Shown piece by piece: positions 13,970-31,638 of a stretch of 32,732 nt of DNA. Position 1 is the first letter of the stretch. Every line of letters begins with the position of its first letter. Origin of the DNA: Candidatus Parcubacteria bacterium (GTDB taxonomy: Bacteria > Patescibacteriota > Minisyncoccia > Phycocordibacterales > Phycocordibacteraceae); assembly GCA_046051155.1 (NCBI GenBank), contig JBJOOS010000001.1:1-32732 (forward strand), given 5' to 3'. The translations under genes were made by a program, and so were the position numbers. The notes under the pieces were generated by a model. It was not told where the DNA came from. It made no database searches and saw only the letters and a list, made by a program, of their open reading frames with translations.

Positions 13970-15253
13970 CTAGCGGCCGGAGCGCTCTGTTTGTGGTTTA
14001 CTGCGAAGCGTGCGTGAACGTGCTTTGCGATGGAGAGCGAGCGAGAAGCGGTGTGCCTCGCTGTTGGCGAGCACTGCGTCGGCTTCGCTCAGGCCCGCAC
14101 GGCGCGCACCGATGACTTCGCGCGGGCGGTGCCGCTCGTCCTTCACCACTGCGCACACGGGAATGTGTATGTTCAATCCTGCAAGCACGCTTTCTGCGGC
14201 TTTTTTATGAGTCGTACCACCGTCTATGACTATCGCTTGGGGGAACGCCCATTCAGGATGATTCAATCGCCGAGACAGAATTTCTCTGAGTGATGCTATA
14301 TCGTCATTTTTAGTAACCCCGCGGATGCGGAAGGTGCGGTACTCGCGTTTGACGGGTACGCCGTCTGCGACCACGGTCATCACGCCAATCGCGTTTGTGC
14401 CCGAGAGATGCGCAGTGTCGTATGCCTCAATGCGCGAAGCAGAAGTCGTGGAGCCGTTTAGATTTTCATCTTTGATGAGCGATACGTCTTGAATATGGTC
14501 GAGTGCGAAGAGCTGCCGGCGCGCGGTAGACGCATCTTCAAATCGCTCTTCACTCGCCGCGCTTCTCATCTCCCGCTCAAGCGTCTTGCGTAACTGCTTC
14601 CCGCGACCACTCAAAAACAGCATCACATTGCGTATCGTGCGGCGGTACTCTTTTGGGTCTATGTTGTGCGGGTACTGATTTATCTGCTTATTGAATTCTA
14701 TTTTTGCCTCCTGGTGCTTGCTCTTGGTTCCCACCGGCTTCGGCGTATCGAAAAACGGGAAGATGCGGCGAATGAGTCGTAACCCCTCACGCAGCTGCGG
14801 TCCCGAGGGAAACGGCCCGTATATCGCTTTATATTTTTGCCGTAAGGTGTCACCTCGCGAAGAAAGCATACTCTTGTTGTTGAAGTCGATGTCGCTACCG
14901 CGGATGGCAAGTACGCGCGGAATCTCTTCTTCGGTAATGACTGCATAGAGAAACGTCTTTCCGTCTTTGCCGTCGCTATTTGCCGGCGGGTTATATTTTT
15001 TAATAAGCGCCGCTTCGTACACGAGCGCCTCCAGTATCGTCGGCGTCGTCTCGTGTGCGATACGGTCGGCCTTCGTGACCATATCGACAATACGCGGGCC
15101 GCGAGTCGCTATGAGGTCGTCGTCGAAGTAGGACCGTACGCGGTCGCGCAGCGACGTCGCCTTCCCTACATACAAGACCTTCCTTCCCTTCTTAAAGAAA
15201 TAGACGCCCGGCAGGTCCGGCAGGTCGAACTTATTTAGATCGCTTCGTTGCAT
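13970..15253 (-). CDS. uvrC: Excinuclease ABC subunit C, minimal 427-aa form
   Basis: GIY-YIG (LPGVYFFKKGRKVLYVGKATSLRDRVRSYF), UVR motif (EERFEDASTARRQLFALDHI) and endonuclease motif RIEAYDTAHLSGTN. There is no C-terminal HhH pair and almost no linker after the UVR motif. Confidence 0.85.
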   Translation of the reverse strand: MQRSDLNKFDLPDLPGVYFFKKGRKVLYVGKATSLRDRVRSYFDDDLIATRGPRIVDMVTKADRIAHETTPTILEALVYEAALIKKYNPPANSDGKDGKTFLYAVITEEEIPRVLAIRGSDIDFNNKSMLSSRGDTLRQKYKAIYGPFPSGPQLREGLRLIRRIFPFFDTPKPVGTKSKHQEAKIEFNKQINQYPHNIDPKEYRRTIRNVMLFLSGRGKQLRKTLEREMRSAASEERFEDASTARRQLFALDHIQDVSLIKDENLNGSTTSASRIEAYDTAHLSGTNAIGVMTVVADGVPVKREYRTFRIRGVTKNDDIASLREILSRRLNHPEWAFPQAIVIDGGTTHKKAAESVLAGLNIHIPVCAVVKDERHRPREVIGARRAGLSEADAVLANSEAHRFSLALHRKARSRTLRSKPQTERSGR

Positions 15254-17873
15254 GGCGTCGCAGTGCCTTCCTCAGATACTCGCCTGTGTGAGACCCGTCC
15301 GTATCGGCGACTTCTTCTGGAGAGCCCTTAGCAATAACTTTACCACCGCCAGAGCCGCCTTCCGGACCGAAGTCGATAAGATAGTCCGCACTCTTTATCA
15401 CGTCGAGATTGTGCTCGATGACGACGACCGTATTGCCGCGACGCACGAGCTCCTGGAGAATCTCGATGAGCTTGGCAACGTCTTCATAGTGGAGGCCGAC
15501 GGTCGGCTCGTCGAGCAGGTAGAGCGTCTTCATCGTCATCGAGCGGAAGAGCTCGCTCGCTATCTTCACGCGCTGCGCTTCCCCGCCCGAGAGCGTCGTC
15601 GCGCTCTGCCCAAGCGTAAGGTATTGGAGTCCTGTTGAATTCAAGCTCTGCAGACGCTCGGCGATAGCAGGAATGTCGGCAAAGAACTTCTCAGCCTCTT
15701 CGATAGTCATCTGCAATACTTCGTAAATATTCTTTCCGCGGAAGGTGACCTCGAGCGTTTCCTTCATAAATCGCTTCCCCATGCAGATATCGCAGGTGAC
15801 GTAGACCGTCGGGAGGAAGTGCATCTCGACCGCGATAGAGCCGTTGCCCTGACACGCTTCGCAGCGGCCGCCCGGCACGTTGAAGGAGAATCGGCCCGGC
15901 TTCCATCCTCGCGCCCGTGCCTCCGAAGTCGCAGCGAAGAGATCGCGAATATGCGTGAAGGAGCCGGTGTAGGTCGCGGGATTGCTGCGGGGCGTGCGGC
16001 CGATTGGCGACTGGTCGATGAGGATCGTGCGGCCGACATACTCGCTGCCTGTAAGCGAGGCTATGTGCTCGAGCTTCGCTTCGCGCTTAGCCGCGCGTGC
16101 GGCCAAATTTTTATGCAAAATATCGTAGAGGAAGGTCGACTTACCACTGCCCGAGACACCCGTGATGCACACGAGCTTCCCGAGCGGGACATCAACGTTC
16201 TGATTCTTCATGTTGTGGAGAGTCGCACCGCGCACTTTTATCCAGCCCTTCTCGCTGGTGCGGCGCTCCTCTGGCAGTGCGACCTCTTTTTCTTGGCGGA
16301 GATACGCGAGCGTCAGAGAGCCGCTCTCGTTCTTCTTGGCGGTGAGCAAGTCATCAAGCCAGCCTGAAGCGACAATTTTGCCGCCGTGCGTGCCTGCGCC
16401 CGGACCGACATCGATAATATAATCGGCAGAATAAATCGTGTCTTCGTCGTGCTCAACGACGATGATCGTGTTGCCGAGATCTTTGAGCGTGAGGAGTGTC
16501 TTAATGAGGCGGTCGTTGTCGCGCTGGTGGAGACCGATGGTCGGCTCGTCGAGCACGTAGAGAGCGCCCGTGAGACCGCTCCCGAGCTGAGACGCGAGGC
16601 GGATGCGTTGCGCTTCTCCGCCCGAGAGGGTCGCGGCAGAACGGTTGAGCGTAAGGTAGTCGAGCCCGACATTGAGCATAAAAATCAGGCGGCTGTCGAT
16701 TTCTTTCAGAATGGGCGCGGCGATTTCTTCTTTCATTTCCGAAAGTTCTATGGAGTCTACGAATTCTTTTGCATCTGCTATCGAGAAATTGGTGAAATCT
16801 ACAATAGACTTGCCGAGCGTTTTGTCCTTTTTACTCTTCAAGTACACGCGGAGCGCTTCGGGGCGCAGACGCTTCCCAACGCAAACCGGACACACTTCTT
16901 CTGAAAAGAGTGATTCCGTCCCGAGACCGTGACAGGCCGGGCATGCGCCGTAGGGCGAGTTAAATGAGAAGAGGCGCGGCTCTACTTCTGGGAACGACGC
17001 ACCGTCTTCGGGACAGATAAACTTCGACGAGAGCGTCTCGAGAGTGCCGTCAGCGTGCTTAATTTTCACGAGGCCATTCGCCTCTTTGAGCGCGAGCTCG
17101 AGCGCTTCAGAGAGGCGCTCGCGAGCGCTCTGGGTCGAGCGTGCAAATTCAGACACAAATATGCTATCTACGAGCACGTCGATATCGTGGCGTTTGTTCC
17201 TATCGAGCGATATTTTCTCGCGGAGCGACTGCTCCTTGCCGTCGATAACCACGCGCTCGTACCCCTTGCCGAGGAGATCGTAGAGCATTTGGTAGTACTC
17301 TCCTTTGCGGCCCACAACTACCGGAGCAGAGAGCGTGACGGCACTCTTATCGACAGCGACACCCATCACGCTCGTGCTCGTTGTCGCGCGCTTTGCTTCG
17401 ACACGATTGAAAACCATTTTAATCATCTCTTCTTTGGAAAGACGCACGATAGGCACGTCATGGTGAATACAGTACGGTTGACCTGCGCGTGCGTAGAGCA
17501 CACGCAGATAGTCGTAAATTTCGGTCACGGTCGCGACAGTCGAGCGCGGATTGTTGGAGCGGCTCTTCTGGTCTATTGAAATGGCTGGCGAGAGGCCAGT
17601 AATCTCGTCTACATCTGGCTTCGCCATCTGGTTTAAAAATTGCCGCGCATAGGCAGAAAGTGACTCCACGTAGCGGCGCTGACCTTCGGCGAAGATAGTA
17701 TCAAAAGCGAGCGATGATTTGCCTGAACCAGAAAGACCCGTGATGACCGTCATCGCGCCGCGCGGCATCTCTACCGTGACGTTCTTCAGGTTGTGGGTAC
17801 GCGCACCCTTCACGCGAAGCCAGTCGCTCCCGTGCTTGTGTGTATGCTCTTCTTTGGCGCTTTGTTTCTTCAT
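15231..17873 (-). CDS. uvrA: Excinuclease ABC subunit A (880 aa, insertion domain missing)
   Basis: Two ABC ATPase modules ([14 protein letters not shown]; [13 protein letters not shown]), signatures LSGGEAQRI and LSGGEAQRV, and Zn modules CPAC...CPVC and CEAC...CDIC. Overlaps uvrC by 23 nt. Confidence 0.95.
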
Positions 17874-17931
17874 TTGGGTATTGAAACCCCTGCCCGTGGA
17901 GGGGCAGGTACGGTTAGACTATAGCGCAGAA

Positions 17932-17969
17932 ATAGGAAAAGGGGGAGCACACCAGCGTGTGACACCCCC
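17932..17969 (-). terminator. Intrinsic terminator after the 32-aa peptide gene
   Basis: The minus strand reads gggggtgtcacac-gctg-gtgtgctccccc followed by ttttcctatttctg. The stem is imperfect (5 bp + bulge + 5 bp). Confidence 0.55.
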
Positions 17970-17979
17970 TCGTTCAGCC

Positions 17980-18078
17980 TTACCCCGCGAAGGCGAAATG
18001 CACGAGCAACCCGACGACGCAGAGAAACACGAAACCCAAGAACTGTCCGGTTGTAGGCTCGTCCTGCAAATGCGACAT
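17980..18078 (-). CDS. Unannotated 32-aa hydrophobic peptide (below the ORF-track cut-off)
   Basis: [38 protein letters not shown] (18083-18088) lies 4 nt upstream of the ATG. There is a hairpin in the leader and a terminator downstream. Confidence 0.5.
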
Positions 18079-18142
18079 ACACCCTCCTTTCCAAGGCGAC
18101 CCTTGGTTTCTTTGACAATATCACTCCTCGGCCTTAGCACAA

Positions 18143-18175
18143 CTACGCCCCTGAAAGCGGTTTACGAATGTCGAC
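18143..18175 (-). repeat. uvrB-tail repeat, copy A (diverged; reads ..[11 protein letters not shown])
   Basis: The + strand cta cgc ccc tga aag cgg ttt acg aat gtc gac aligns codon by codon to the true uvrB end. Differences in the last 7 codons are all third-position. Confidence 0.7.
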
Positions 18176-18176
18176 T

Positions 18177-18440
18177 TCAGAAGATTGCGGTAAGGAATGT
18201 TGCAATTGCCAGCGGAATGCCAGGCAGATTGCAGATGAAGATAGGCCAATCCCGCGGCGTCTTGTAGAAGCCATAGGAAGTCCAGGTTATGGCACTACAT
18301 GCGGTCATAAGTGGAATGAGCCATGAACCCTTGTGGCCCGTCATGTTCAGCCTGATCTGATCGATGAACGAAAAGTACATCGACAGAGCAAAGACTGTGC
18401 CCAGCCAGCCTATCGAAGAAACTTGCTTTTGTGATAGCAC
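18177..18440 (-). CDS. SemiSWEET-like (MtN3/PQ-loop, 3-TM) sugar transporter
   Basis: 87 aa with three TM helices. [23 protein letters not shown]...[21 protein letters not shown]...[15 protein letters not shown] matches the SWEET half-unit pattern (xQ loop, W..YG, P-I...N). GTG start with AAGGAG 8 nt upstream. Confidence 0.65.
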
Positions 18441-18482
18441 GAAATGTACTCCTTACTTGACTGTGATTGACTACCGTGATGT

Positions 18483-18511
18483 ATTATGTAGTATCTTATA
18501 GTTACTGTCAA
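18483..18511 (-). promoter_or_regulatory. Sigma70-type promoter for the SemiSWEET gene
   Basis: The minus strand reads TTGACA (18511-18506), a 17-nt spacer, then CATAAT (18488-18483). The -35 box contains the TGA of uvrB-tail copy B. Confidence 0.6.
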
Positions 18512-18539
18512 GCGCCAGAAAGCGGTTTACGAGTGCGAG
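18508..18539 (-). repeat. uvrB-tail repeat, copy B (reads [12 protein letters not shown])
   Basis: tcaagcgccagaaagcggtttacgagtgcgag is identical to 18924-18955 at 30 of 32 nt. Both differences are synonymous third positions. Confidence 0.85.
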
Positions 18540-18551
18540 CTGAAGCTCAGG

Positions 18552-18584
18552 AATAGGAAAAGGGCATCCGTAGATGCCCTTTTG
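18552..18584 (-). terminator. Intrinsic terminator after the 89-aa protein gene
   Basis: The minus strand reads aaaagggcatc-tacg-gatgccctttt followed by cctattcctg. This is the same 3' flank motif as the terminator at 17932-17969. Confidence 0.7.
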
Positions 18585-18602
18585 TGGGCCGGCCGCAGCC
18601 GC

Positions 18603-18872
18603 TCACTTCTTCGACAAGAACTTCGCGACCTCATCGCGAGCTCGCGCTTCGGCGTCAGTGACACAGAGCTTGTCACGCTCATCATATAGCGCGAACTGCT
18701 TGGTACTGAGATTACAGTTATTCCCAACGTACTCATTGGTGAGATGCTTGCTGAAGCCAGCTGAAACCGCCGCCGTATTCGCGTTGGCCTGAGCGAGATC
18801 GCGCTGCCAAAGCATCGCGGAAATGCCGAAGGCGACAGTGACTACTCCTAGGGACACGTTCGTAAAGGTCAT
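18603..18872 (-). CDS. Hypothetical 89-aa N-terminally anchored protein with two Cys
   Basis: MTFTNVSLGVVTVAFGISAMLWQ... AGGAG lies 5 nt upstream of ATG 18872. The track's longer GTG start (18908) would overlap the predicted promoter. No family recognised. Confidence 0.55.
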   Translation of the reverse strand: MTFTNVSLGVVTVAFGISAMLWQRDLAQANANTAAVSAGFSKHLTNEYVGNNCNLSTKQFALYDERDKLCVTDAEARARDEVAKFLSKK

Positions 18873-18898
18873 AATGCTCTCCTGATTTACCGCTTTAT

Positions 18899-18927
18899 AT
18901 AATAGCACCTATAGACCCACTCGTCAA
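18899..18927 (-). promoter_or_regulatory. Sigma70-type promoter overlapping the uvrB stop codon
   Basis: The minus strand reads TTGACG (18927-18922), a 17-nt spacer, then TATTAT (18904-18899). The uvrB TGA lies inside the -35 box. Confidence 0.55.
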
Positions 18928-18955
18928 GCGCCAGAAAGCGGTTTGCGGGTGCGAG
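18924..18955 (-). repeat. uvrB-tail repeat, copy C (the authentic uvrB 3' end)
   Basis: Last 9 sense codons (plus the end of the preceding Pro codon) and the stop of uvrB ([12 protein letters not shown]). Confidence 0.9.
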
Positions 18956-20978
18956 GTTTGCGAGCCTTTGGTCCTGTGCCCTCGAGTTTATAAATTTCGT
19001 CGCGGATGAGCGCTGCTGTCTCGAAGTCGAGTTTCTCTACTGCCTCTGCCATCTCTTCCCTCTTGCGCGCGACAAATGCTTTCGGGTCGTCTTTATACGC
19101 CAGCGTGTCGAGCACGAGGAGCTCATCTATCGTGCGCTGGTGCTCGGTGCGCATAGACGCGGCGATGTCGTGAATCTCTTTTTTAATCGTGAGCGGAGTG
19201 ATGCCGTGCTTCGTGTTGTACGCCATCTGGAGTGCGCGACGGCGATTGGTCTCGCTAATCGCGCGGTCCAACGAGCCCGTCATGTTGTCGGCGTAGAGAA
19301 TCACGCGGCCGAGGACGTTACGCGCCGCGCGACCGATAGTCTGTATGAGCGATGTCTCGCTGCGCAGGAAGCCCTCCTTGTCTGCGTCGAGGATGCCGAC
19401 GAGTTCCACTTCTGGCAGGTCGAGTCCTTCGCGGAGCAGGTTCACACCGACGAGAATGTCGAAGCCGCCCTGGCGAAACTTCGTGAGGATGTCTATGCGG
19501 TCTATCGTCTTCACGTCTGAGTGGAGGTATTCGGCCTTGATTCCCTTCTCGCGCAGGAAGGACGCAAGGTCTTCTGCCATCTGCTTGGTGAGCGTAGTCG
19601 CGAGCGCGCGGCCGCCGCGCTTAATCACCACTTCTGCTTCAGCAATAAAATCCGCAATCTGTCCCTTGTACTCTCCGGTCTCGACAATCGGGCGGACCGT
19701 AAGCTCTGGGTCGATGAGACCGGTCGGGCGAATCACTTGCTCTACTACCTGCTCTGAATGCTGCTTCTCGTATGCGCCTGGTGTCGCGCTTGTGTACACG
19801 ACCTGTCCGACGCGCTTTTCAAACTCTTCGAAGCGAAGTGGGCGATTGTCGCGGGCACTCGGCAGGCGGAAGCCATACTCCACGAGCACGTCCTTGCGCG
19901 ATTTGTCGCCCGCATACATGCCGCCTATTTGGGAAACTGTGACGTGTGACTCATCTATCACGGTGAGGAAGTCTGCGGAGCCGTCTTTCGTGTGCGGGAA
20001 ATACGACAGAAGCGTGAACGGCGGTTCGCCTGGCTTACGCCCGTCGAAGTGCCGCGAGTAGTTCTCGATGCCGCTCGTGTATCCGAGCTCGCGGATGAGC
20101 GCGAGGTCGTGGAGCGTGCGGCGCTTCAGGCGCTCGTGCTCGAGCGGCTTCTCTTCGCGCTTAAACTTAGCGAGCTGCTCGTCGAGCTCCAGCTTAATGT
20201 CTTCGATGGCGCGCAGGCGCTCGTCTTCGTTTGTCACGAAGTGCTTCGCCGGGAAGACGAACACTGACCGTGGCTCTGCAATCTTCGCACGAGAGACTGG
20301 GTCGAGCTGGTGGATACTCGCGATAGCGCTCCCATCAAAGGTAATGCGGAATATCGCGCGCTCGTTGACTGGCATAAATTCAAGCGAGTTCCCTACTGCG
20401 CGCAACTGCCCCGGATTGAGGTCGGCGTTTGTGCGTTCGAAATAAATGCCGACGAGCTTGCGTATGAGCGCGGAGCGATTCTCTTCGCTGCCCTGCTCTA
20501 TTTTTACGTGCACTTTTTCATATTGCTCCGGCGAACCGAGGCCGTAGATGGCCGAGACTGAAGCGACGATGATGACGTCCTTGCGCGTGAGCAGCGCCTG
20601 CGTCGCCGCGTGACGCAGGCGGTCTATCTCTTGGTTAATCATCGCCTCCTTCTCTATATAGGTATCGGAGTGCGCGATGTACGCCTCTGGCTGGTAGTAG
20701 TCGTAGTACGAGACGAAGTAGTGCACCGCGTTTTCAGGAAAGAACTCGCGATATTCCTGCGCGAGCTGTGCAGCGAGGGTCTTGTTGTGTGCGAGCACGA
20801 GTGTTGGTTTGTCGTTCTTCGCGATAACGTTTGCCACGGTAAAGGTCTTCCCGCTTCCAGTCACACCAAAAAGCGTCTGGTGATGCAGACCTTTCTTCAG
20901 CCCGTCGGAGAGCTTCTCAATTGCCTGCGGCTGATCGCCCGCAGGCTCAAATGGAAGATGGAGTTTGAAATTAGCCAT
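18924..20978 (-). CDS. uvrB: Excinuclease ABC subunit B
   Basis: Start taken at [23 protein letters not shown]. Contains Walker [13 protein letters not shown], the beta-hairpin region [10 protein letters not shown], helicase motifs, and a C-terminal UVR motif [17 protein letters not shown]. The ATG overlaps the tgt stop (ATGGCTAA). Confidence 0.95.
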
Positions 20979-22224
20979 AGTATTGTCGTACAAATTCTGC
21001 ACGGTATTCGTCAAAACGTCCATCAATAATAGCTTGGCGCGCACCCTTCACGAGCGCGAGGATGAAGCCGACATTATGCATCGAGCAGATCATAGAGCCG
21101 AGCATCTCTTTGGAGCGGATGAGGTGTGCCACGTATGCACGTGTGAATGGCTCGGTACCAGCGATGCTGACTTCAGAATCGAGCGGACCGAAATCCTCTT
21201 TGAAGCGTTCTCCCGTGAGATGGATGATTCCTTTTTTCGTATAAATAGAACCATGACGGCCGATGCGAGTGGCGGCGACGCAGTCGAAGAGGTCCATCCC
21301 GTGCGCGATACCCTCGAGAATGTCGCCCGGCTCGCCGATGCCGAGGAAATGCTTCGGCAATTCTTCTGGTAATTCCCCTACTGCCGCTTGGAGCGCGCCG
21401 CGCATGTCTTCTTTGCTAAATGAGCCGCCGATACCGATGCCATCGAAGCCGAGCGACGCGATTTCTCGTGCGCTTTCCTTGCGCAAATCTTTGTGGCGAC
21501 CGCCCTGCACAATGCCGAAGATGGCCTGCTTTTGTGATGCATCGATATTCTGTCGGTGCGCTTTCAGACTACGCTCGGCCCAGCGGTGTGTGCGCTCCAT
21601 CGCCTCTCGCTGATATTCGTATGGCTCGTTCGGCGAGGTGCACTCGTCAAACGCGAAGAAGAGGTCAGCACCTAAGGCGTGCTGAATTTCTACCGAGCGC
21701 TCGGGCGTGAAGCGGTGAAGCGAGCCGTCGAGATGCGAAGTGAACGACACGCCCTCGTCGTCGATGACCGCGAGCTGGCCGTGCTGGCTGGCCACGTCTT
21801 CGTCGTAGACCGCCACCGATTCCTCCTGTGGCGCATCCTCTTTTACAAACTTAGTAATGGTCTTCCCGAATGCCGCGCCGAGCGAGAAGACTTGGAATCC
21901 GCCAGAGTCGGTCATCGTGGGCGCTGTTTTGCCTCCTTTTTCCCAGCCCATAAACTTCCCGAGACCTCCGCCTTTCTGAACGATTTTTTCTCCTGGCTGA
22001 AGGTACAAGTGATAGGTATTTGCGAGCACCACATCTGCGCCAAGATCTACGAGCTGCTCGGGTAGAATACCTTTCACGTTGGCTTTTGTGCCGACGGGGA
22101 CGAAGGCGGGAGTGTGAATCACGCCGTGCGGAGTCGTGAGTACGGCAGCGCGCGCTTTATGATTGGCGGATGCCGCCCCGCTGCCTGGCGCGCGTGCTTC
22201 TATCTGGAATGAGATGCTACTCAT
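20971..22224 (-). CDS. tgt: tRNA-guanine transglycosylase (queuine tRNA-ribosyltransferase)
   Basis: 417 aa. Contains TPAFVPVGT, DSGGFQVFSL and GMDLFDCVAATR. The usual CxCxxC zinc motif is replaced by VSIAGT. Confidence 0.9.
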   Translation of the reverse strand: MSSISFQIEARAPGSGAASANHKARAAVLTTPHGVIHTPAFVPVGTKANVKGILPEQLVDLGADVVLANTYHLYLQPGEKIVQKGGGLGKFMGWEKGGKTAPTMTDSGGFQVFSLGAAFGKTITKFVKEDAPQEESVAVYDEDVASQHGQLAVIDDEGVSFTSHLDGSLHRFTPERSVEIQHALGADLFFAFDECTSPNEPYEYQREAMERTHRWAERSLKAHRQNIDASQKQAIFGIVQGGRHKDLRKESAREIASLGFDGIGIGGSFSKEDMRGALQAAVGELPEELPKHFLGIGEPGDILEGIAHGMDLFDCVAATRIGRHGSIYTKKGIIHLTGERFKEDFGPLDSEVSIAGTEPFTRAYVAHLIRSKEMLGSMICSMHNVGFILALVKGARQAIIDGRFDEYRAEFVRQYYG

Positions 22225-23152: not shown

Positions 23153-25438
23153 TTATTTATCGGTAGGCAACTTGACCCGCTCACTGAAGTCGCCCGGTCC
23201 CGACACCTTCAACCACGACGAGAACACGCGACGAAGACCACGCGCATATACTGCATCTTTAGGCTGATACGTTGCTTCGCCGTTGACGAGACGAATCGGA
23301 AGGCGGTAACTTCCCTTCGCGTCTTCACCAATCCCATAGACTGTCTCCTTCGGATGGAGGAGAAGATACTCCTTGGCCTTATTCGTATACTTCTCTGGGT
23401 CTGAACCTCCATAGACAAATACGTGTTTCGCCGCACGGTATATGCCAGTCTCTTTCTCCGGCACCACGACGCCGAATTTATTTGGCACAAACATCTCAGT
23501 ACTACCTGGCTGAACGGTCTCAGCAATGGGGGCGTCATGGATTGGTGTCTCACCAGTTGGTGCATCGGCGTGCACACTAGCGCCTGTATCGGGTGTGGCG
23601 TCCGCGGTATCGTCCGGCACGATTTCCCAATGTCCGCCCGGCGTTGGAGCCTCAACAGTTGTCTCTGGTACCACATGTCCACTACCCGCCGCGTCTGGCA
23701 TTTCAGGACTGTCTACGGCGAGCTTAACTTCTGGTTCTGAGGCAACGGAGGTCGTTACCTCCCCCGAGGAATGACCGACCTGCTGATCAAGACCTGTATC
23801 AGGATTGTCTGAGTCATAGGCGGCCTCGGCGTCCTGATACGAGGGCTCTGGAGCCTGCCCCTCCGGAGCGGGCACCGGTGCTTGGACGTCGTCGGGAGCG
23901 GGAGACACCGCATCACTTGGAACGGCCTCTGGTGTACCCTCTGATGTGGGCAACGTCTCAGCAGGCGAAGAAGCCGAAGATGCTGCCGACACCTCACTCG
24001 GTACGGTTGCGGCGGCGGGCGGCGGCGCCTCTGCTGTCTGGGGCGCAACCGGTGGCACGACAACTCGCTCCGGCACAGGAGCCACGTGCGCCGGCGGGGC
24101 GTGCAGCCCTCTCTCCTGGACGTACGCGTTATGCCCATCAGTGTGATGAAACGCGAGGTTGTGCTTCAGCCACTCAGATATTCTCTCAGGAGCAGAGTCG
24201 GGGATATGTAAGCCAGTGAGCGACCACCCCTCTTTAATCGCGAGACCTGGAACTCCTGAAAAAATCGCCAAGGCGACGGTGGCTGCAGTACCGTGCTTCT
24301 TCCACTTCTCAAATTTCGTCCGAGCAGTTCCTCTCTCTGCCTCCTTTTTGGCGAGACGTTTCTCCAGGGTTCCCTCGACCAGAGCGTAGGTACCGAGAGA
24401 CGAGAGGGATCTTTGTCCAAGCTTCGCAGCGCTGAGAAGCGTCACCAAAGTCGAGGCGCCACCCGTCGCAAGTGACGCTCCAAAGAGTGCGCCCGACACT
24501 GCAACTTTATATTTGAGCGGGAGCTTCCGGTACCATTCGCCCGCTTTAAGTAAGCTTTCTCCCGCGTTTTTACCAAGCGCTTGTATCTTTCTCGTGAGTT
24601 CGACATCGCGCAACTGAAGCGTTTTTTCACCAATGCGCCGACTCTGTTCGGCGAGATACCCTTTTGCCTTTTTAAAATCCTCAGAGCCGCCTGCAATGGC
24701 TTCACGACTGTTGTCGAGGAATTCTTCTGTAACCTGGCCTGCTTTCTCTTTTGCTCCGCTGGCAAATCGCCCAACGAGCCCCTTCAGCTTCTTCTTCCAT
24801 TCAAAAGGAGTCTTCCACTCCTCTTCCTCCTTTGCATACGGGAGTTCAGCGAGACCCTCGCTTACTAGGTCCTCATTCGCTGGCGGATACACCGTCGGGA
24901 TTCTCGGCCCGCGTCGCGAATGCTTCTCCACCTCTTCGCGGATTTTCGTTTCGCGGCTCGTGTCGACGTCATGCACGCGCGGTATAGAGAACGCGGCAAT
25001 GTCAGCCGCCTCTGCGCGGGATACTCCGGCGATGTCTTCCTTCGAATACCCAAGGTCTTCGAGCTTGCCCTCAGACTTCCAATCCCATTGTCCATTATTC
25101 TCCGACGGTGCGGGTACATCAACCCCTTGCCCCTCTCTCTCCAAATCCCTTCGCTCAATATCCCTCTGTATGGCTTGCAATTCCTGAAGATGCTCGTCTG
25201 AGAACGCAGACGGAGCTACCGTACCAGCTGGCGCTGGTTCCTGCGTGAGCGGAACATCGGGAAAGTGCCGAACTCCCTCCTCTTTTGCCATCCTAATTGC
25301 CTCTTTCTTAGCCCGCACATTTGGACCGCGCGGCGGTAAAGTAACGAGGACACCTTCTTCTGCCGCACGCTCCAGAGAAGCGAACCGCTGATCCTTATCG
25401 CGCGGTTTTCTCGGTGGACGATTAATACCCCCAGCCAT
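23153..25438 (-). CDS. 761-aa membrane protein with a charged N-terminal region, two hydrophobic segments, a Pro/Ala/Glu/Asp-rich stalk and a C-terminal globular domain
   Basis: Long ORF whose ATG lies 1 nt after the stop of the upstream ATPase. Hydrophobic segments sit at about aa 311-338 and 383-400. Low complexity spans about aa 445-645. No family recognised. Confidence 0.75.
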   Translation of the reverse strand: MAGGINRPPRKPRDKDQRFASLERAAEEGVLVTLPPRGPNVRAKKEAIRMAKEEGVRHFPDVPLTQEPAPAGTVAPSAFSDEHLQELQAIQRDIERRDLEREGQGVDVPAPSENNGQWDWKSEGKLEDLGYSKEDIAGVSRAEAADIAAFSIPRVHDVDTSRETKIREEVEKHSRRGPRIPTVYPPANEDLVSEGLAELPYAKEEEEWKTPFEWKKKLKGLVGRFASGAKEKAGQVTEEFLDNSREAIAGGSEDFKKAKGYLAEQSRRIGEKTLQLRDVELTRKIQALGKNAGESLLKAGEWYRKLPLKYKVAVSGALFGASLATGGASTLVTLLSAAKLGQRSLSSLGTYALVEGTLEKRLAKKEAERGTARTKFEKWKKHGTAATVALAIFSGVPGLAIKEGWSLTGLHIPDSAPERISEWLKHNLAFHHTDGHNAYVQERGLHAPPAHVAPVPERVVVPPVAPQTAEAPPPAAATVPSEVSAASSASSPAETLPTSEGTPEAVPSDAVSPAPDDVQAPVPAPEGQAPEPSYQDAEAAYDSDNPDTGLDQQVGHSSGEVTTSVASEPEVKLAVDSPEMPDAAGSGHVVPETTVEAPTPGGHWEIVPDDTADATPDTGASVHADAPTGETPIHDAPIAETVQPGSTEMFVPNKFGVVVPEKETGIYRAAKHVFVYGGSDPEKYTNKAKEYLLLHPKETVYGIGEDAKGSYRLPIRLVNGEATYQPKDAVYARGLRRVFSSWLKVSGPGDFSERVKLPTDK

Positions 25439-25439
25439 A

Positions 25440-28196
25440 CTAGCGCGAGAGATACCGCTCCCGAATCATATTTTCAACAGTAGCACGGTCGCGCCCGTAG
25501 GTCAGCGAAGAAAGTTGCACTAGGTCCTGCACCTGTTCGTGATTGAGCGGCGGGAGATCGACCGTCTTCATATCAAACGGCTTCTGCGGTATGCCTTTGG
25601 TGAGAATCTTCACATACGCATTTCTGAACTCGAGATTCACGAAATCGAGCGCCTTGAAGACCGGCGCAAACTGCTTCTCGAAGAACTCAGCATCTTCTTC
25701 GCCAACGCGGAAGATAGCCATGTTACCCACGTTGCCGAAGACGGCATCGCGCGTCTTCTCGTCTATCTGCGCGAGGAACTGGTGCGCCATCGAGAGCGAG
25801 AGCTTGTACTTGCGAGCCTCAGAGAGAATGCCTGGAATCGAGTCCGTGGTGATGTTCTGGAACTCGTCGATATAGAGATAGAAGGGTGGAAACTGTCCGC
25901 GCGGATTGTCAGCGCGCGAGAGCGCGGCCATGAAGAGCTTGCCCACGAGAATAAGACCGAGCAGGTTGGCGTTCTTCTCGCCGAGACGGCCCTTGGAGAG
26001 ATTCACGAGGAGAATCTTCTTATTATCCATCACCTCGCGGAAGTTGAACGAGGACTCCTGCTGGCCGACGATCGGACGGATAAAGTCGTTTGCGGTGAAG
26101 TCGTCAAACTTGTTGGTGATATACGGCACGATATTTTCGAGCGACGCGTCGCCGCCCGCCTTCGTTGCGATGTCAGTCCAGAACTGATTCACAATCGGAT
26201 TCATGCTGCGAGACAGCTTCAACCTGCGGAATTCGGTGTTTGAGAGAACGCGCGCGATGTCGAGTATGGTCGAGCCGCTGGTCGGATCTTCCATCACGAG
26301 CTGAGTCGCATTGCGGAAATACTGCTCGAAGGCTGGACCCATGCTCTCGGGCACGTCGCCGTAGAGGCGGCGGAATATCATCAAGAGCTCATTTACGATA
26401 AACGTCTTCTGCTCGGGGCGCGAGATATCGTATTCCAAGAAATTTAATCCAAACGGACGCGAGAGATCCGCTGGGTCGAAGTAGATAACGTCTTGGTAAC
26501 GCTCGGGCGGAACGGCGGCGAGGACATTCAGCACGTCAGAGCCGTGCGGGTCGATGAAGCAGCAGCCCTCGCCGTTTTTAATATCCTGAATAATAGACGC
26601 CGTCAGGAGCCCCGACTTACCGGTACCAGTCTGACCGATGATATAGAAATGACGGAGGCGATCCTCCATCTCCATCCGCACCTCCGTCTGCACATTGCGA
26701 TAGGTGTTCGTCCCTAGCATGAGCCCATCCTTCGGCAGAGTGAGCGGCGCGGGCGCGTGGGTGAAGCGTGCCTGCTTCAGGTGCGGGGAACTCTCGATGC
26801 CAGACGGCGGGAAGTGGTACATCGTTGTGAGCTCGCGGAGCGAGAGCGGCATCGCAGTCGCGTCTGGCAGACGGAACGAGAAGTCTTCGAAGAGGTCGCG
26901 TTCGTCGCCGCCGTGCGCGCGCACGAACTTAATCCGGTTGCCCTGCGTGTTGGTGAACTGATTAAACGCCGCCTCGAGTTCGCCGAGTACTTGCTCTGCC
27001 TTCTGCTCGTTCTTAGAGGAAGCGACGAGGCGGATCGTCGCGCCGACGATCGGTGTCGCGACCTTCTTCTCGACCTGTTCCACGTGCGTCTTATTCTCTT
27101 CTATCTGGCGCGTCTCGGCCTCCTTCGCCTTCTCCTCGTCCTTGGGCTTACTCGTGAAGAGTGTGCGGCCGAAGTCGCGTGCGATCTCGCCAAGCGCGGT
27201 CTCAGGCGTCGAGAAGGCTACGTGACGCTTCTCGCCTTTGCGCAGTGCCTGGAGAATCTTACGGTAGTGCTTCACGTGCCGCTCGGCGCGCGGCTCGATG
27301 ATAATCTGAAGGGCCGCGCCCTCTCCCTCGTGCTCTATTTTGGAAAACGCATTAATAATCGCATTTATCGGATCGTAGTCGAAGTCGGTATAGTCCTTGA
27401 GCGGAAGCGCGGCGTGCTCGGCGAAGTGAGCGGTCGCGGCGAGCGACTTCCCGCCAGAGACGAAGATGTTGTAATCGTTCTCCTGAGGCACGAGGTGCGC
27501 TTCGGGAAAGACGGCGAGCAATTGCTTCTCGAAGAGGTTGCGCTTCGTGTTCGGCACCGCCGCATAGAACTGTAACTCTGAACTGTCGGCCGGTATCGCG
27601 AGCTCAAGCGCGAAGTAGTGCGGCTCGCCTGGCACCGCCTGCTCAACCGAGAGGAGGCCCGCGTAGAGCTGTTCCATGCTCGATACCAGCTCCTTCAGCG
27701 GCTTCTCGCGCGCGCCCGTATCTGCGTTTTTATACTCAGGAAGCGCAACTTCGTAGAGCGTCATGTGGAGCGCTTGGAAGCGAGGAGTCTTCTCGTCGAG
27801 GCCCGACACCGGCAGGCCAGCCGCGATGTGCCGCACGAGGTAGCGATGGAAGTCGTCTGCGATATACGGATCCTGCATTTTCTCGACTACTGAAAGCACG
27901 TGTTTAATCCCCTTCTCTTCCATCGCGCTCTTCAGGCTCCGTATCACGTCTTCACTCCCGCCAAGGCGCAGCTCAGTGAGTAAACGCGAGGCAGTGTCGC
28001 CTGCCGCCGCTTCATCGACACGATATTTTTTAGCGAGAACGGTGGCTGGCGCTTCGTGGTGCTCGTGAATCGTCTCTGAGATTATTTCTGGTCGCGAGTG
28101 GTCAGACCCCGCGAGCTCTGCCTCCTTGCGCATTACCTGCTCTCGCAAGTACGCGAGCTCTTCTTCAGGCGTGGACAGCTTCGGTACAGATTCCAT
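25440..28196 (-). CDS. VirD4/TraD-like (type IV coupling protein family) P-loop ATPase with a large unknown N-terminal domain and no TM helix
   Basis: 918 aa. Contains Walker A IIGQTGTGKSGLL (about nt 26612-26637), Walker B FYLYIDEFQN, and a C-terminal MAHQFLAQIDEKTRDAVFGNVGNMAIFRVG resembling TraD/TraG C-terminal motifs. Confidence 0.75.
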   Translation of the reverse strand: MESVPKLSTPEEELAYLREQVMRKEAELAGSDHSRPEIISETIHEHHEAPATVLAKKYRVDEAAAGDTASRLLTELRLGGSEDVIRSLKSAMEEKGIKHVLSVVEKMQDPYIADDFHRYLVRHIAAGLPVSGLDEKTPRFQALHMTLYEVALPEYKNADTGAREKPLKELVSSMEQLYAGLLSVEQAVPGEPHYFALELAIPADSSELQFYAAVPNTKRNLFEKQLLAVFPEAHLVPQENDYNIFVSGGKSLAATAHFAEHAALPLKDYTDFDYDPINAIINAFSKIEHEGEGAALQIIIEPRAERHVKHYRKILQALRKGEKRHVAFSTPETALGEIARDFGRTLFTSKPKDEEKAKEAETRQIEENKTHVEQVEKKVATPIVGATIRLVASSKNEQKAEQVLGELEAAFNQFTNTQGNRIKFVRAHGGDERDLFEDFSFRLPDATAMPLSLRELTTMYHFPPSGIESSPHLKQARFTHAPAPLTLPKDGLMLGTNTYRNVQTEVRMEMEDRLRHFYIIGQTGTGKSGLLTASIIQDIKNGEGCCFIDPHGSDVLNVLAAVPPERYQDVIYFDPADLSRPFGLNFLEYDISRPEQKTFIVNELLMIFRRLYGDVPESMGPAFEQYFRNATQLVMEDPTSGSTILDIARVLSNTEFRRLKLSRSMNPIVNQFWTDIATKAGGDASLENIVPYITNKFDDFTANDFIRPIVGQQESSFNFREVMDNKKILLVNLSKGRLGEKNANLLGLILVGKLFMAALSRADNPRGQFPPFYLYIDEFQNITTDSIPGILSEARKYKLSLSMAHQFLAQIDEKTRDAVFGNVGNMAIFRVGEEDAEFFEKQFAPVFKALDFVNLEFRNAYVKILTKGIPQKPFDMKTVDLPPLNHEQVQDLVQLSSLTYGRDRATVENMIRERYLSR

Positions 28197-30130: not shown

Positions 30131-30814
30131 TTACTTCACCAAAGGATCAATAGCCGCCTTGAAGGTGTCAAATGGATACGACCCTGCAATCAGCTTAGTG
30201 CCGATGATAAAGGAGGGTGTCGACTGGACGTTTAACCCCTGCCCTTCAGTCTTATCTGCAGTCAGCATAGCGTCGTAGGTGCTTGCGTTCGCCTTCACGT
30301 CAGCGGCGACTGCCGCGGCGTCGATGCCAGAGATCGTTGCGTCGAGCGTGTCGATGGTAGCGGCGTTGCCGAAGCCTTGGTCGCCCTCTTGGTCTTGGGC
30401 GTTATACATCGCGGTGCGCCAGGTGAAGTATTTGTCGGGATAGAGCTTCCACACCGCGCGACCGTACTCGCCGCCCGTGATCGAGTCCTTACCGAGGAAT
30501 GCCATATCCTTGAATACCAGCTTCACCTTGCCGGTGTCTATGTAAGAACTCATCACCTGCGGAAGCGCCGTTAGCTCGAACTGCTTGCACGCGGGGCACT
30601 GATAATCAGACCACTCAACAATAGTGACCGGCGCGTTTGCCTGGCCGATGAAGGGCTCGTTATCGGTCTTCACCTTCGAGGCATCAACCGTCGTCGAAAT
30701 GGGTGTGGTGCTACCCGACTGGGCGCCGAAGTAGACTGCGCCGACAACCAGAAGGCCTACAAACACCACCACAATAACAAGCAGAACCTTGGTACTCCGG
30801 TCGTTCAGATCCAT
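30131..30814 (-). CDS. DsbA-like thiol:disulfide oxidoreductase (thioredoxin fold), anchored
   Basis: N-terminal TM helix, active site WSDYQCPACKQFE, C-terminal STPSFIIG. Confidence 0.82.
   Translation of the reverse strand: MDLNDRSTKVLLVIVVVFVGLLVVGAVYFGAQSGSTTPISTTVDASKVKTDNEPFIGQANAPVTIVEWSDYQCPACKQFELTALPQVMSSYIDTGKVKLVFKDMAFLGKDSITGGEYGRAVWKLYPDKYFTWRTAMYNAQDQEGDQGFGNAATIDTLDATISGIDAAAVAADVKANASTYDAMLTADKTEGQGLNVQSTPSFIIGTKLIAGSYPFDTFKAAIDPLVK
30258..30502. repeat. Near-identical 245-bp tract shared by the two DsbA-like paralogs (copy 1)
   Basis: Hand alignment with 30946-31190 at a fixed offset of 688 shows about 11 mismatches. The first 72 nt are identical. Confidence 0.8.
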
Positions 30815-30815
30815 A

Positions 30816-31547
30816 CTACTTACCGAGTACGGCTGTTATCGCCGTTTCAAACTGAGCGTAGGGATATGCGCCAGCGAGGAGCTGAGTACCGATGATGAAC
30901 GACGGCGTCGCGCTCACGCCAAGCTTGGCCGCCTCTGCTTTGTCCGCAGTCAGCATAGCGTCGTAGGTGCTTGCGTTCGCCTTCACGTCAGCGGCGACTG
31001 CCGCGGCGTCGATGCCAGAAATCGTCGCGTCAAGCGTGTCGATGGTAGCGGCGTTACCGAAGCCTTTGTCGCCCTCTTGGTCTTGGGCGTTATACATCGC
31101 GGTGCGCCAGGTGAAGTATTGTGAGGGATAGAGCTTCCACACTGCGCGACTGTACTCGCCGCCCGTGATCGAGTCCTTACCGAGGAATGCGAAATCCTTA
31201 AAGACAATCTTCACCTTACCGGTCTCCACATAGTTCTTGAGAATGTCTGGCATAGCGGCACCTATCGTGATCTGTGGAACACCGCCAGTCTCAAACGCTT
31301 TACAGTACGGACACTGGAAGTCGCTCCAGAAAGCGATAGTGACTGGCGCATTTGCCTGGCCGATGAATGGCTCGCCATCAGTCTTAACGTCCTTAATATT
31401 TACCTTCGGCGCCTGGGGCTGTTGACCCGCTGCGACCTGAGCACCCGCTACAGGATGCTGACCATTATAGAAAACGGCGCCGGCAATAAGGGCCAAACCG
31501 GCGAACAGCGCTATCGGCATGAACTTGTCATTTGTTTTGGTTTCCAT
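30816..31547 (-). CDS. DsbA-like thiol:disulfide oxidoreductase, tandem paralog
   Basis: Active site WSDFQCPYCKAFE and ATPSFIIG. Its stop lies 1 nt before the downstream paralog's ATG. Start is uncertain: ATG 31547, or an upstream GTG up to 31583. Confidence 0.8.
   Translation of the reverse strand: METKTNDKFMPIALFAGLALIAGAVFYNGQHPVAGAQVAAGQQPQAPKVNIKDVKTDGEPFIGQANAPVTIAFWSDFQCPYCKAFETGGVPQITIGAAMPDILKNYVETGKVKIVFKDFAFLGKDSITGGEYSRAVWKLYPSQYFTWRTAMYNAQDQEGDKGFGNAATIDTLDATISGIDAAAVAADVKANASTYDAMLTADKAEAAKLGVSATPSFIIGTQLLAGAYPYAQFETAITAVLGK
30946..31190. repeat. Near-identical 245-bp tract shared by the two DsbA-like paralogs (copy 2)
   Basis: See 30258-30502. Confidence 0.8.
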
Positions 31548-31638
31548 ATCCGAGGATAATACCACACCCCTCCTTACCGCCACCAGAAGGTGCTACTCTT
31601 ATAGGTGGATCTTCCACCAACCGCTACAGGAGGCGGAG

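Follow-up and report, generated by a model that had tools for sequence, protein, structure and literature searches.

The uvrB-uvrA locus

The window analyzed here is a complete contig of 32,732 nucleotides (32.7 kb) recorded under the name 'Candidatus Parcubacteria bacterium', an uncultured member of the Patescibacteria; the closest relatives of its uvrB gene are annotated as Kaiserbacteria or Paceibacterota. On the reverse strand the genes run in the order tgt, uvrB, three small open reading frames (ORFs), uvrA, uvrC and ddl, and our subject is the interval between uvrB and uvrA, in which the last codons of uvrB recur twice and each of the three copies is followed by one small gene. For comparison, 80 species-level relatives were kept out of 534 loci found, with about 90 loci surveyed overall; individual loci are referred to by number (such as L039) where they must be told apart. 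The core genes are as follows.

20971..22224, reverse strand: tgt (Pfam)
18924..21044, reverse strand: uvrB (Pfam UvrB, UvrB_inter, Helicase_C and UVR domains)
15231..17873, reverse strand: uvrA, the downstream core-gene flank (Pfam)
13970..15253, reverse strand: uvrC (Pfam)

The uvrB call made by JGI starts at 21023 and gives a 699-aa product. Judged by comparison with its relatives, the C-terminus encoded in the window is a genuine conserved coding tail: the ending RKPLSG[AGS]* is common to many relatives' uvrB genes, among which the codons used for it differ at wobble positions.

Three copies of the uvrB tail

A repeat search of the window returns one three-copy family (18923-18955, 18507-18539 at 94% and 18142-18174 at 67%), confirming the original prediction, which had been made from the letters of the window and held that the end of uvrB recurs twice downstream of the gene without a uvrB body attached.

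18924..18955, reverse strand: tail C, the functional last 10 codons of uvrB plus the stop codon, used as the reference copy (repeat search and codon comparison)
18508..18539, reverse strand: tail B, a stranded uvrB tail matching tail C at 30/32 nt, both differences synonymous
18143..18175, reverse strand: tail A, also a stranded uvrB tail but further diverged, with its left boundary at about -32, as in tail B

Neither tail B nor tail A has a uvrB body upstream, and their left boundaries agree within 2 nt. A 24-nt core (allowing up to three mismatches) is confined to the three tail sites in the window, with 0.00 occurrences expected from shuffled sequences, and the same is true of the 11-nt core AAACCGCTTTC (0.62 expected). 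The array is real and not an artefact of assembly, since the identical sequence spanning all three tails has been assembled independently in at least five other samples (JGI, Logan). A chimera is excluded by the short Logan contigs and the JGI contigs from different samples that cross all three tails.

A dispersed repeat resembling the repetitive extragenic palindromic (REP) elements, which would have spoken against the original prediction, is ruled out. The window holds the three local copies only, and the degenerate motif CGNAAACCGCTTTCNGGNGCNT gives 46 single matches in the metagenome collection, of which about 43 are in unrelated contexts and 3 at uvrB loci; by our estimate, a pattern specified at 18 bases would match about that often by chance in so large a collection. 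The same motif has no matches in IMG/VR viral contigs, and a phage- or plasmid-like attP carrier of the uvrB tail was rejected as a candidate when searches of IMG/VR with the tail motif and with the 69-aa C-terminus, and of GenBank phages by tblastn, returned nothing. The folds of tails A and B are no more stable than those of shuffled sequence (z +0.86 and +0.99), and no Rfam family was found in the uvrB-uvrA region.

Tails C and B differ at two positions, both of them third positions of codons and both synonymous. Within RKPLSGA, tails C and A show four differences, all four of which fall at third positions (P=0.006), and the stop codon is TGA in tail C and TAG in tail A. The codon-wise comparison thus holds for RKPLSGA and the stop, and over this stretch the proposal that divergence is confined to wobble positions stands; it does not stand beyond, the codon before RKPLSGA being non-synonymous in tail A relative to tail C (ACC>ATT, Thr>Ile). 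Compared with the functional uvrB tails of L022 and L038, tail A has 5 mismatches, fewer than the 8 that separate it from tail C.

Gene units between uvrB and uvrA

The interval can be read as three joined units, each extending from a uvrB tail to the next gene, with the following features in the order of transcription.

18899..18927, reverse strand: promoter-like site P1, TTGACG-17-TATTAT, a 10/12 match with TG before the -10 box; the -35 box overlaps the uvrB stop codon
18603..18872, reverse strand: unit 1 cargo, an ORF for a protein of 89 aa, hydrophobic at its N-terminus and containing two Cys
18558..18583, reverse strand: terminator hairpin 1, AAAAGGGCATC-tacg-GATGCCCTTTT (-24 kcal/mol, z -3.6)
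18544..18564, reverse strand: 21-nt flank repeat, left copy, cccttttcctattcctgagct, 90% identical to the right copy
18483..18511, reverse strand: promoter-like site P2, TTGACA-17-CATAAT, an 11/12 match; the -35 box overlaps the stranded stop codon
18177..18440, reverse strand: unit 2 cargo, an 87-aa SemiSWEET-type (MtN3/PQ-loop, PF03083) membrane protein; start codon GTG, Shine-Dalgarno site AAGGAG
18115..18142, reverse strand: weak promoter-like site P3, TTGTGC-16-TATTGT, of extended -10 type with TG before the -10 box, read directly from the sequence
17980..18078, reverse strand: unit 3 cargo, a gene for a 32-aa hydrophobic peptide with a GGAGG Shine-Dalgarno site, called as a gene by JGI and Logan
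17941..17969, reverse strand: terminator hairpin 2, GGGGGTGTCACAC...GTGTGCTCCCCC followed by TTTT (folding)
17923..17943, reverse strand: 21-nt flank repeat, right copy, continuing into the uvrA -10 box TATAGT (17918-17923)
17889..17908, reverse strand: uvrA leader hairpin/palindrome CCTGCCC-N6-GGGCAGG, conserved, the uvrA-side edge of the variable interval

The promoter-like sites, Shine-Dalgarno sites and small ORFs are where they were originally described. The stop codons of tails C and B do lie inside -35 boxes with 17-nt spacing, and the weaker site after tail A is present, scoring under the threshold of the promoter scanner. Four promoter-like sites are observed in the region against 0.9 expected, and each of the three copies has an invariant core, CGTAAACCGCTTTC, whose distance from the -35 box does not change. 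The uvrB stop (..T TGA C..) would serve in this subclade as the -35 box of the next gene's predicted promoter. Because the stop codon forms that box, a unit travelling with its tail would arrive with a putative promoter of its own; and since the tail supplies the downstream -35 box, there would be a reason in this subclade for unit and tail to stay together.

The three cargo genes are mutually dissimilar, and none is present in the uvrB-uvrA loci of relatives. The 89-aa protein belongs to no Pfam family and a word search of 5.8e9 proteins matched it only to itself; homologue searches with it and with the SemiSWEET protein likewise return only the queries. The relatives' small membrane proteins encoded at the position of the unit 1 cargo are non-homologous to the 89-aa protein: homology to those of L001 and L013 was considered and rejected, the alignment being unconvincing and the architecture alone shared. 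Against PF03083 the SemiSWEET ORF scores 25.4 bits over residues 9-81 of 87, above the curated gathering cut-off of 23.7, and its length suits a family of about 85-100 aa with one three-helix bundle. The public annotation gives this gene a 67-aa product from an internal start; JGI and Logan call the 87-aa form with the GTG start. Unit 2 lacks its own terminator; the SemiSWEET stop codon is followed after 1-5 nt by tail A.

The two hairpin terminators had been said to share a flanking sequence, and this is indeed the case for the 21-nt repeat at 18544-18564 and 17923-17943. By alignment, terminator 1 has its orthologue in the terminator that immediately precedes the uvrA -10 box of L001, L013, L135 and L139, and unit 1 can be aligned with the relatives' module through the terminator and TATTCCTG. 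Homology with the relatives' uvrA upstream region ends at the left flank copy, exactly where the -10 box would start, and tail B takes the place of that box. Tail B, the SemiSWEET gene, tail A, the 32-aa gene and terminator 2 together form a block of 621 nt bounded by the duplicated 21-mer. The interval in the window thus looks like one of native type with an added 621-nt block: unit 1 (tail C, the 89-aa gene, terminator and flank) would be the arrangement typical of the subclade, and units 2 and 3 the block set between the duplicated flanks, just upstream of the uvrA -10 box. A foreign base composition of the units is not evident (G+C 0.46-0.55, against 0.557 for the window), and such a host-like G+C content fits closely related donors.

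The uvrB-uvrA interval in relatives

The order tgt-uvrB-(interval)-uvrA-uvrC is preserved in the 80 species-level relatives. Among the roughly 90 same-order relatives the gap between uvrB and uvrA measures 43 to 4313 nt, with unrelated content in different genomes, so that the arrangement seen in the window is not a fixed one. The minimal intervals (50-60 nt) contain just an extended -10 box about 10 nt past the uvrB stop and the leader hairpin ACCGTACCTGCCCCGCCACGGGCAGG; larger ones carry genes for small membrane proteins, zeta toxin, CARDB proteins, ATP-citrate-lyase-like proteins and two-component systems. In the nearest relatives (L001, L013, L135-137 and L139) the uvrB tail is followed by one small membrane-protein gene and a terminator, AAAGGGCAYC..GRTGCCCTTT, after which come CTxTATTTCT, a -10 box, the leader hairpin and uvrA. 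TTGAC often lies across the uvrB stop in these genomes, with the stop codon forming part of a -35 box in L001, L013 and L135. Variable accessory content between conserved core genes, free of mobility genes, is the profile of a horizontal gene transfer (HGT) hotspot lacking mobile genetic elements (MGEs), and the comparison supports the proposal that the 3′ end of uvrB, or more broadly the uvrB-uvrA junction, is a hotspot of DNA gain in this lineage.

The ATP-citrate-lyase-like genes, with Citrate_bind, ATP-grasp, Citrate_synt and CoA-ligase domains, are in the intervals of L038, L040, L065 and L074. The metabolism of Patescibacteria is very reduced, which makes this cargo unexpected.

The palindrome in the uvrA leader, with a 7-bp stem between the -10 box and the start codon, is nearly invariant in about 70 related loci (for example L006, L012 and L135), and variants with compensatory changes (CCTGTCC..GGACAGG, CCGGTCC..GGACCGG) are found among relatives. 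It is present in a single copy in the window and has no match in Rfam. It could be an RNA leader structure or an operator for a DNA-damage regulator.

Stranded tails in other genomes

The prediction that an insertion at this site brings or strands a uvrB tail is supported by three other loci, L039, L091 and L143, which have the same architecture with other cargo. In L039 the uvrB tail is followed by genes for an antitoxin and ParE (PF05016), a 30-codon stranded tail and a terminator, then by a reverse 135-aa ORF, a decayed third tail and uvrA, giving two stranded tails in all. The resident uvrB of L091 ends in ...KKMFS* and has a terminator, beyond which lie an NYN-domain gene, a stranded tail of another allele type (...RGRKPLSGA*), a gene for an S-adenosylmethionine (SAM) methyltransferase and a second stranded tail, of KMFS type, with its terminator. 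L143, whose uvrB is 90% identical to that of the window, has the tail and a terminator, a reverse gene for a 62-aa membrane protein and a 15-codon stranded tail whose peptide is identical to that of the functional tail, three wobble positions being different. In L120 and L125 a ParE cassette homologous to that of L039 lies directly after uvrB and is followed by a 12-nt remnant of the ..AALI codons of uvrB. Recent transfer of this cassette between L039 and L125 was considered; a pairwise scan of the two loci gives an identity of 0.86-0.89 around the tail, a slight rise that is not clearly above the conserved parts of uvrB.

The stranded tails of L039, L091 and L143 are 15-30 codons long, and the tails in L143 and L091, together with tail 2 of L039, precede terminators or reverse-oriented cargo. 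Their left boundaries are at -47 (L143), -72 and -90 (L039) and -78 and -81 (L091), compared with about -32 for both stranded tails of the window; of the four in L039 and L091, three have their start no more than about 6 nt from the L-I-R-D-E codons. The duplications are one-sided: 101 loci yielded 7 stranded uvrB tails and no duplicated uvrA leader. As had been noted for the window, no recombinase accompanies these arrays: Pfam families of integrases, transposases and resolvases are absent from the 135 interval ORFs of relatives, from the cargo of L039 and L091, and from the window ORFs tested.

At 4548-4570 of L039 and 2388-2412 of L125, the antitoxin gene carried by the ParE cassette begins 6-7 nt past an extended -10 box (TGGTACACT and TGGTATACT, respectively) and has no Shine-Dalgarno site, which suggests a leaderless transcript.

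Origin of the tails as coding sequence

The distribution of differences over codon positions was compared for stranded and resident tails within each genome.

L039 tail 2 and resident tail: 6/7 differences at third positions, P 0.003
L091 tail 2 and resident tail: 9/10 differences at third positions, P 7.5e-5
L091 tail 3 and resident tail: 14/20 differences at third positions, P 1e-4
L143 stranded and resident tail: 3/3 differences at third positions, P not computed

With the window included, 37 of the 46 pooled differences are at third codon positions; neutral decay of a stranded copy would be expected to place about 50% there, and the binomial P for 37/46 is about 1e-5 (both figures are our estimates). 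Moreover, tail 2 of L091 is of an allele type (RKPLSGA) unlike that of the host uvrB (KKMFS), and tail 2 of L039 is also unlike its host tail. The third-position bias and the affinity of tail A to the tails of L022 and L038 argue that the tails evolved as coding sequence elsewhere, and the view already advanced in the original prediction, that they diverged as coding sequence in different uvrB alleles, is supported by these comparisons. Because RKPLSG[AGS] is conserved while its codons vary at wobble positions, the repeat in the window is a coding tail and not a regulatory site at the level of DNA.

How the units may have accumulated

The reading that we consider probable is that DNA of related genomes has been inserted repeatedly and additively at the 3′ end of uvrB, leaving uvrB tails as scars. 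DNA would have been added at the junction, not merely swapped, each imported block having its start within the final 10-30 codons of uvrB in the donor. One complete tail would fuse to the resident uvrB body, so that the gene is kept intact, and the other would stay downstream as a stranded direct repeat comparable to an attL/attR scar. The units had been described as cassettes; they look, however, like whole or partial uvrB-to-uvrA intervals of related genomes and not like autonomous elements. Directly observed are the repeats, the variability of the interval among relatives, the presence of stranded tails in further genomes, their divergence under coding constraint and the lack of a local recombinase, whereas the order of events, the activity of the promoters and the enzyme are inferred. 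The process may be directed by the tail, through a recombinase encoded elsewhere that acts on units like the cis-mobilizable elements (CIMEs), or through integration of tail-bearing circles by a single crossover, and we lean toward such a process, in preference to illegitimate joining of a symmetrical kind, because duplication always affects the uvrB side alone and because boundaries coincide within genomes (at about -32 in the window, and at LIRDE for 3/4 of the tails in L039 and L091).

Several observations weigh against this reading. The proposal that the tail doubles as a promoter applies to this subclade alone, with strong matches of the predicted sites at tails C and B, and fails for L143, for L091 and for tail 2 of L039. 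Stranded tails are present in just 4 or 5 of the approximately 90 loci surveyed, and their left boundaries differ among genomes (-32 to -90), which speaks against a single conserved att core. The supposedly mobile cargo genes of the window have no detectable homologues elsewhere, and the junction at tail B, a 3-nt microhomology (GCT) plus filler, fits illegitimate joining equally well. All copies of the window strain retrieved by exact-protein look-ups are 100% identical, with no strain-level cassette polymorphism seen among them, so that no insertion event has been caught directly; nor was a near-identical pair of genomes with and without a unit found.

It is possible, though unlikely, that the array arose with no tail-specific machinery, by homology-facilitated illegitimate recombination of DNA taken up from relatives, through a RecA-dependent crossover in uvrA or its promoter region and a microhomology join on the other side, blocks with a donor tail being retained since the tail carries the -35 box of the cargo. 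The profile of the interval as an MGE-free hotspot between core genes (PMC5635113) agrees with this, as do the failure to find a recombinase, the variation of left boundaries between genomes, and a host-like cargo G+C content suggestive of closely related donors; in the window itself, the block of units 2 and 3 is flanked by the duplicated uvrA-proximal 21-mer and its left junction offers only the GCT microhomology. What such a process does not account for is the asymmetry of 7 stranded tails against 0 duplicated leaders, and random breakpoints are unlikely to have produced the coincident boundaries of tails A and B and of 3/4 tails in L039 and L091. Selection for the promoter, for its part, cannot explain why tails are kept before terminators or reverse cargo in L143, L091 and at L039 tail 2.

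Two further explanations dispense with insertion of foreign alleles or with the coding origin of the repeat. Tandem duplication is a common spontaneous event, and duplication in situ (by slippage, unequal crossing-over or a long target-site duplication) followed by local divergence would suit the shared boundary of tails A and B, the duplicated 21-nt flank and the 2/32 nt that separate tails C and B; in the window alone, a fossil copy beside an evolving coding copy could also give 5/6 third-position differences where we estimate about half to be expected. We nevertheless regard it as improbable in view of the pooled 37/46 third-position differences, against an estimated 50%, the allele types of the second tails of L091 and L039, which are unlike those of their host tails, the lack of similarity among the three cargo genes, and the closer relationship of tail A to tails of other species than to tail C. 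That the repeated core of 14-24 nt instead acts as DNA, for example as an operator, a UP element or a promoter module that was copied or arose by convergence ahead of the three small genes and overlaps uvrB incidentally, is suggested by the position of each copy just upstream of, or overlapping, a -35 box, and by the invariant core CGTAAACCGCTTTC, equidistant from that box in 3/3 copies. This we find very hard to credit, as relatives conserve the peptide and not the DNA, leaving the codons free to vary at wobble positions; the differences show a 3-nt periodicity with the stop preserved as TGA or TAG, the motif occurs at no other place in the window, and the tails in L039, L091 and L143 span 15-30 codons, often without a co-directional gene after them.

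Repeated insertion at the uvrB 3′ end thus remains the reading we prefer. A stronger form of it, which we think doubtful, is that in some Patescibacteria the coding 3′ end of uvrB is the attachment site of a gene-capture platform, with very small one-gene units, each consisting of a uvrB tail, a promoter and cargo, excising and integrating by recombination between tails, catalyzed by a recombinase encoded elsewhere in the genome or by RecA acting on short portable homology. If true, captured genes would be expressed on arrival, the stop codon serving as -35 box, and the platform would be integron-like while having neither IntI nor attC.

Other features of the window

Upstream of tgt and uvrB, on the reverse strand, lie genes for a 918-aa protein (25440-28196) with a TraG/TraD C-terminal, coupling-protein-like domain, whose homologues in relatives are listed with DUF8128, and for a neighboring 761-aa protein (23153-25438) without a Pfam family; the pair is kept at this position in relatives. 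A 287-nt direct repeat with 93% identity (30252-30538 and 30940-31226) lies in a thioredoxin/DsbA-like gene (30131-30814) and the adjacent gene (30816-31583), and suggests that a gene was recently duplicated in tandem or underwent gene conversion. The segment 6617-12302 contains six tRNA genes (Ala x3, Pro x2, Val) among accessory-looking genes, including those for a beta-lactamase-family protein, an amine oxidase, DUF2177 and DUF1761 proteins, and unannotated ORFs, and may be a second variable region; the general repeat search of the window reported no stranded tRNA fragments there.

Comparison with known systems

Genomes of Patescibacteria are about 1 Mb in size and have few recognizable mobile elements, and how they gain genes is poorly understood. 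The uvrB-uvrA locus offers a concrete footprint, seen repeatedly, of gene gain by addition at a defined site between two repair genes of essential type; related species would have supplied the donor alleles, and no recombinase was found nearby. Were the process directed by the tail, it would be a cassette system in minimal form whose attachment site codes for protein; were it illegitimate recombination, the locus would be a natural record of the growth of an MGE-free hotspot. Either way, stranded gene tails could be used as a searchable marker of such events in metagenome-assembled genomes.

Integrative elements and CIMEs are known to accrete in tandem at the 3′ end of a target gene, as with ICESt1 and ICESt3 at fda in Streptococcus thermophilus, and units of CIME type that lack an integrase but retain both att scars are a recognized outcome (PMC5704250). 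The likeness to the present arrays is considerable: in the window, L039, L091 and L143 the units lie between direct repeats that copy the 3′ end of a conserved gene, the target gene is intact owing to the replacement end that incoming DNA would bring, and units accumulate in tandem. They differ in that no integrase or transfer gene, and no tyrosine or serine recombinase, was found in any array here (among the ORFs and cargo searched above), in that the boundary of the repeated tail varies between genomes, and in that each unit of the window holds one small gene in 365-620 nt, which makes it smaller than described CIMEs by an order of magnitude. We therefore do not class these arrays as CIME accretion, the defining recombinase having been sought and not found and the units being so much smaller.

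HGT hotspots between core genes without mobile-element genes have also been described, and their turnover has been attributed to housekeeping recombination with the DNA of relatives, especially in transformable bacteria (Oliveira et al. 2017, PMC5635113). The uvrB-uvrA interval resembles these in lying between two core genes and in having variable accessory content with no integrase or transposase. However, the double crossover in the flanking genes replaces content and is scarless, whereas the changes here are additive and leave stranded 3′ fragments of one flank.

In the tycheposon islands of Prochlorococcus, partial tRNA copies mark successive insertions (bioRxiv 10.1101/2020.12.28.424599), and there too short fragments of the target gene between cargo modules record serial insertion in a streamlined genome. 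Tycheposons encode a site-specific integrase and replication genes and target tRNAs; here the target is a protein-coding end and such genes are absent. Integron arrays provide another parallel, consisting as they do of tandem single-gene units, each with one short repeat resembling a recombination site. The window has no attI or Pc, and no IntI integrase was found in it or in the intervals of relatives; the repeat is a coding tail that does not fold into an attC-like hairpin, and, unlike those of integrons, the units carry their own predicted promoters and in two cases their own terminators.

We know of no previous description of such insertion with uvrB as target or with Patescibacteria as host. 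To our knowledge, what distinguishes this locus from the systems above is the combination of a protein-coding target, uvrB, with very small units that appear to bring their own promoters, the lack of a local recombinase, and the lineage in which it occurs.

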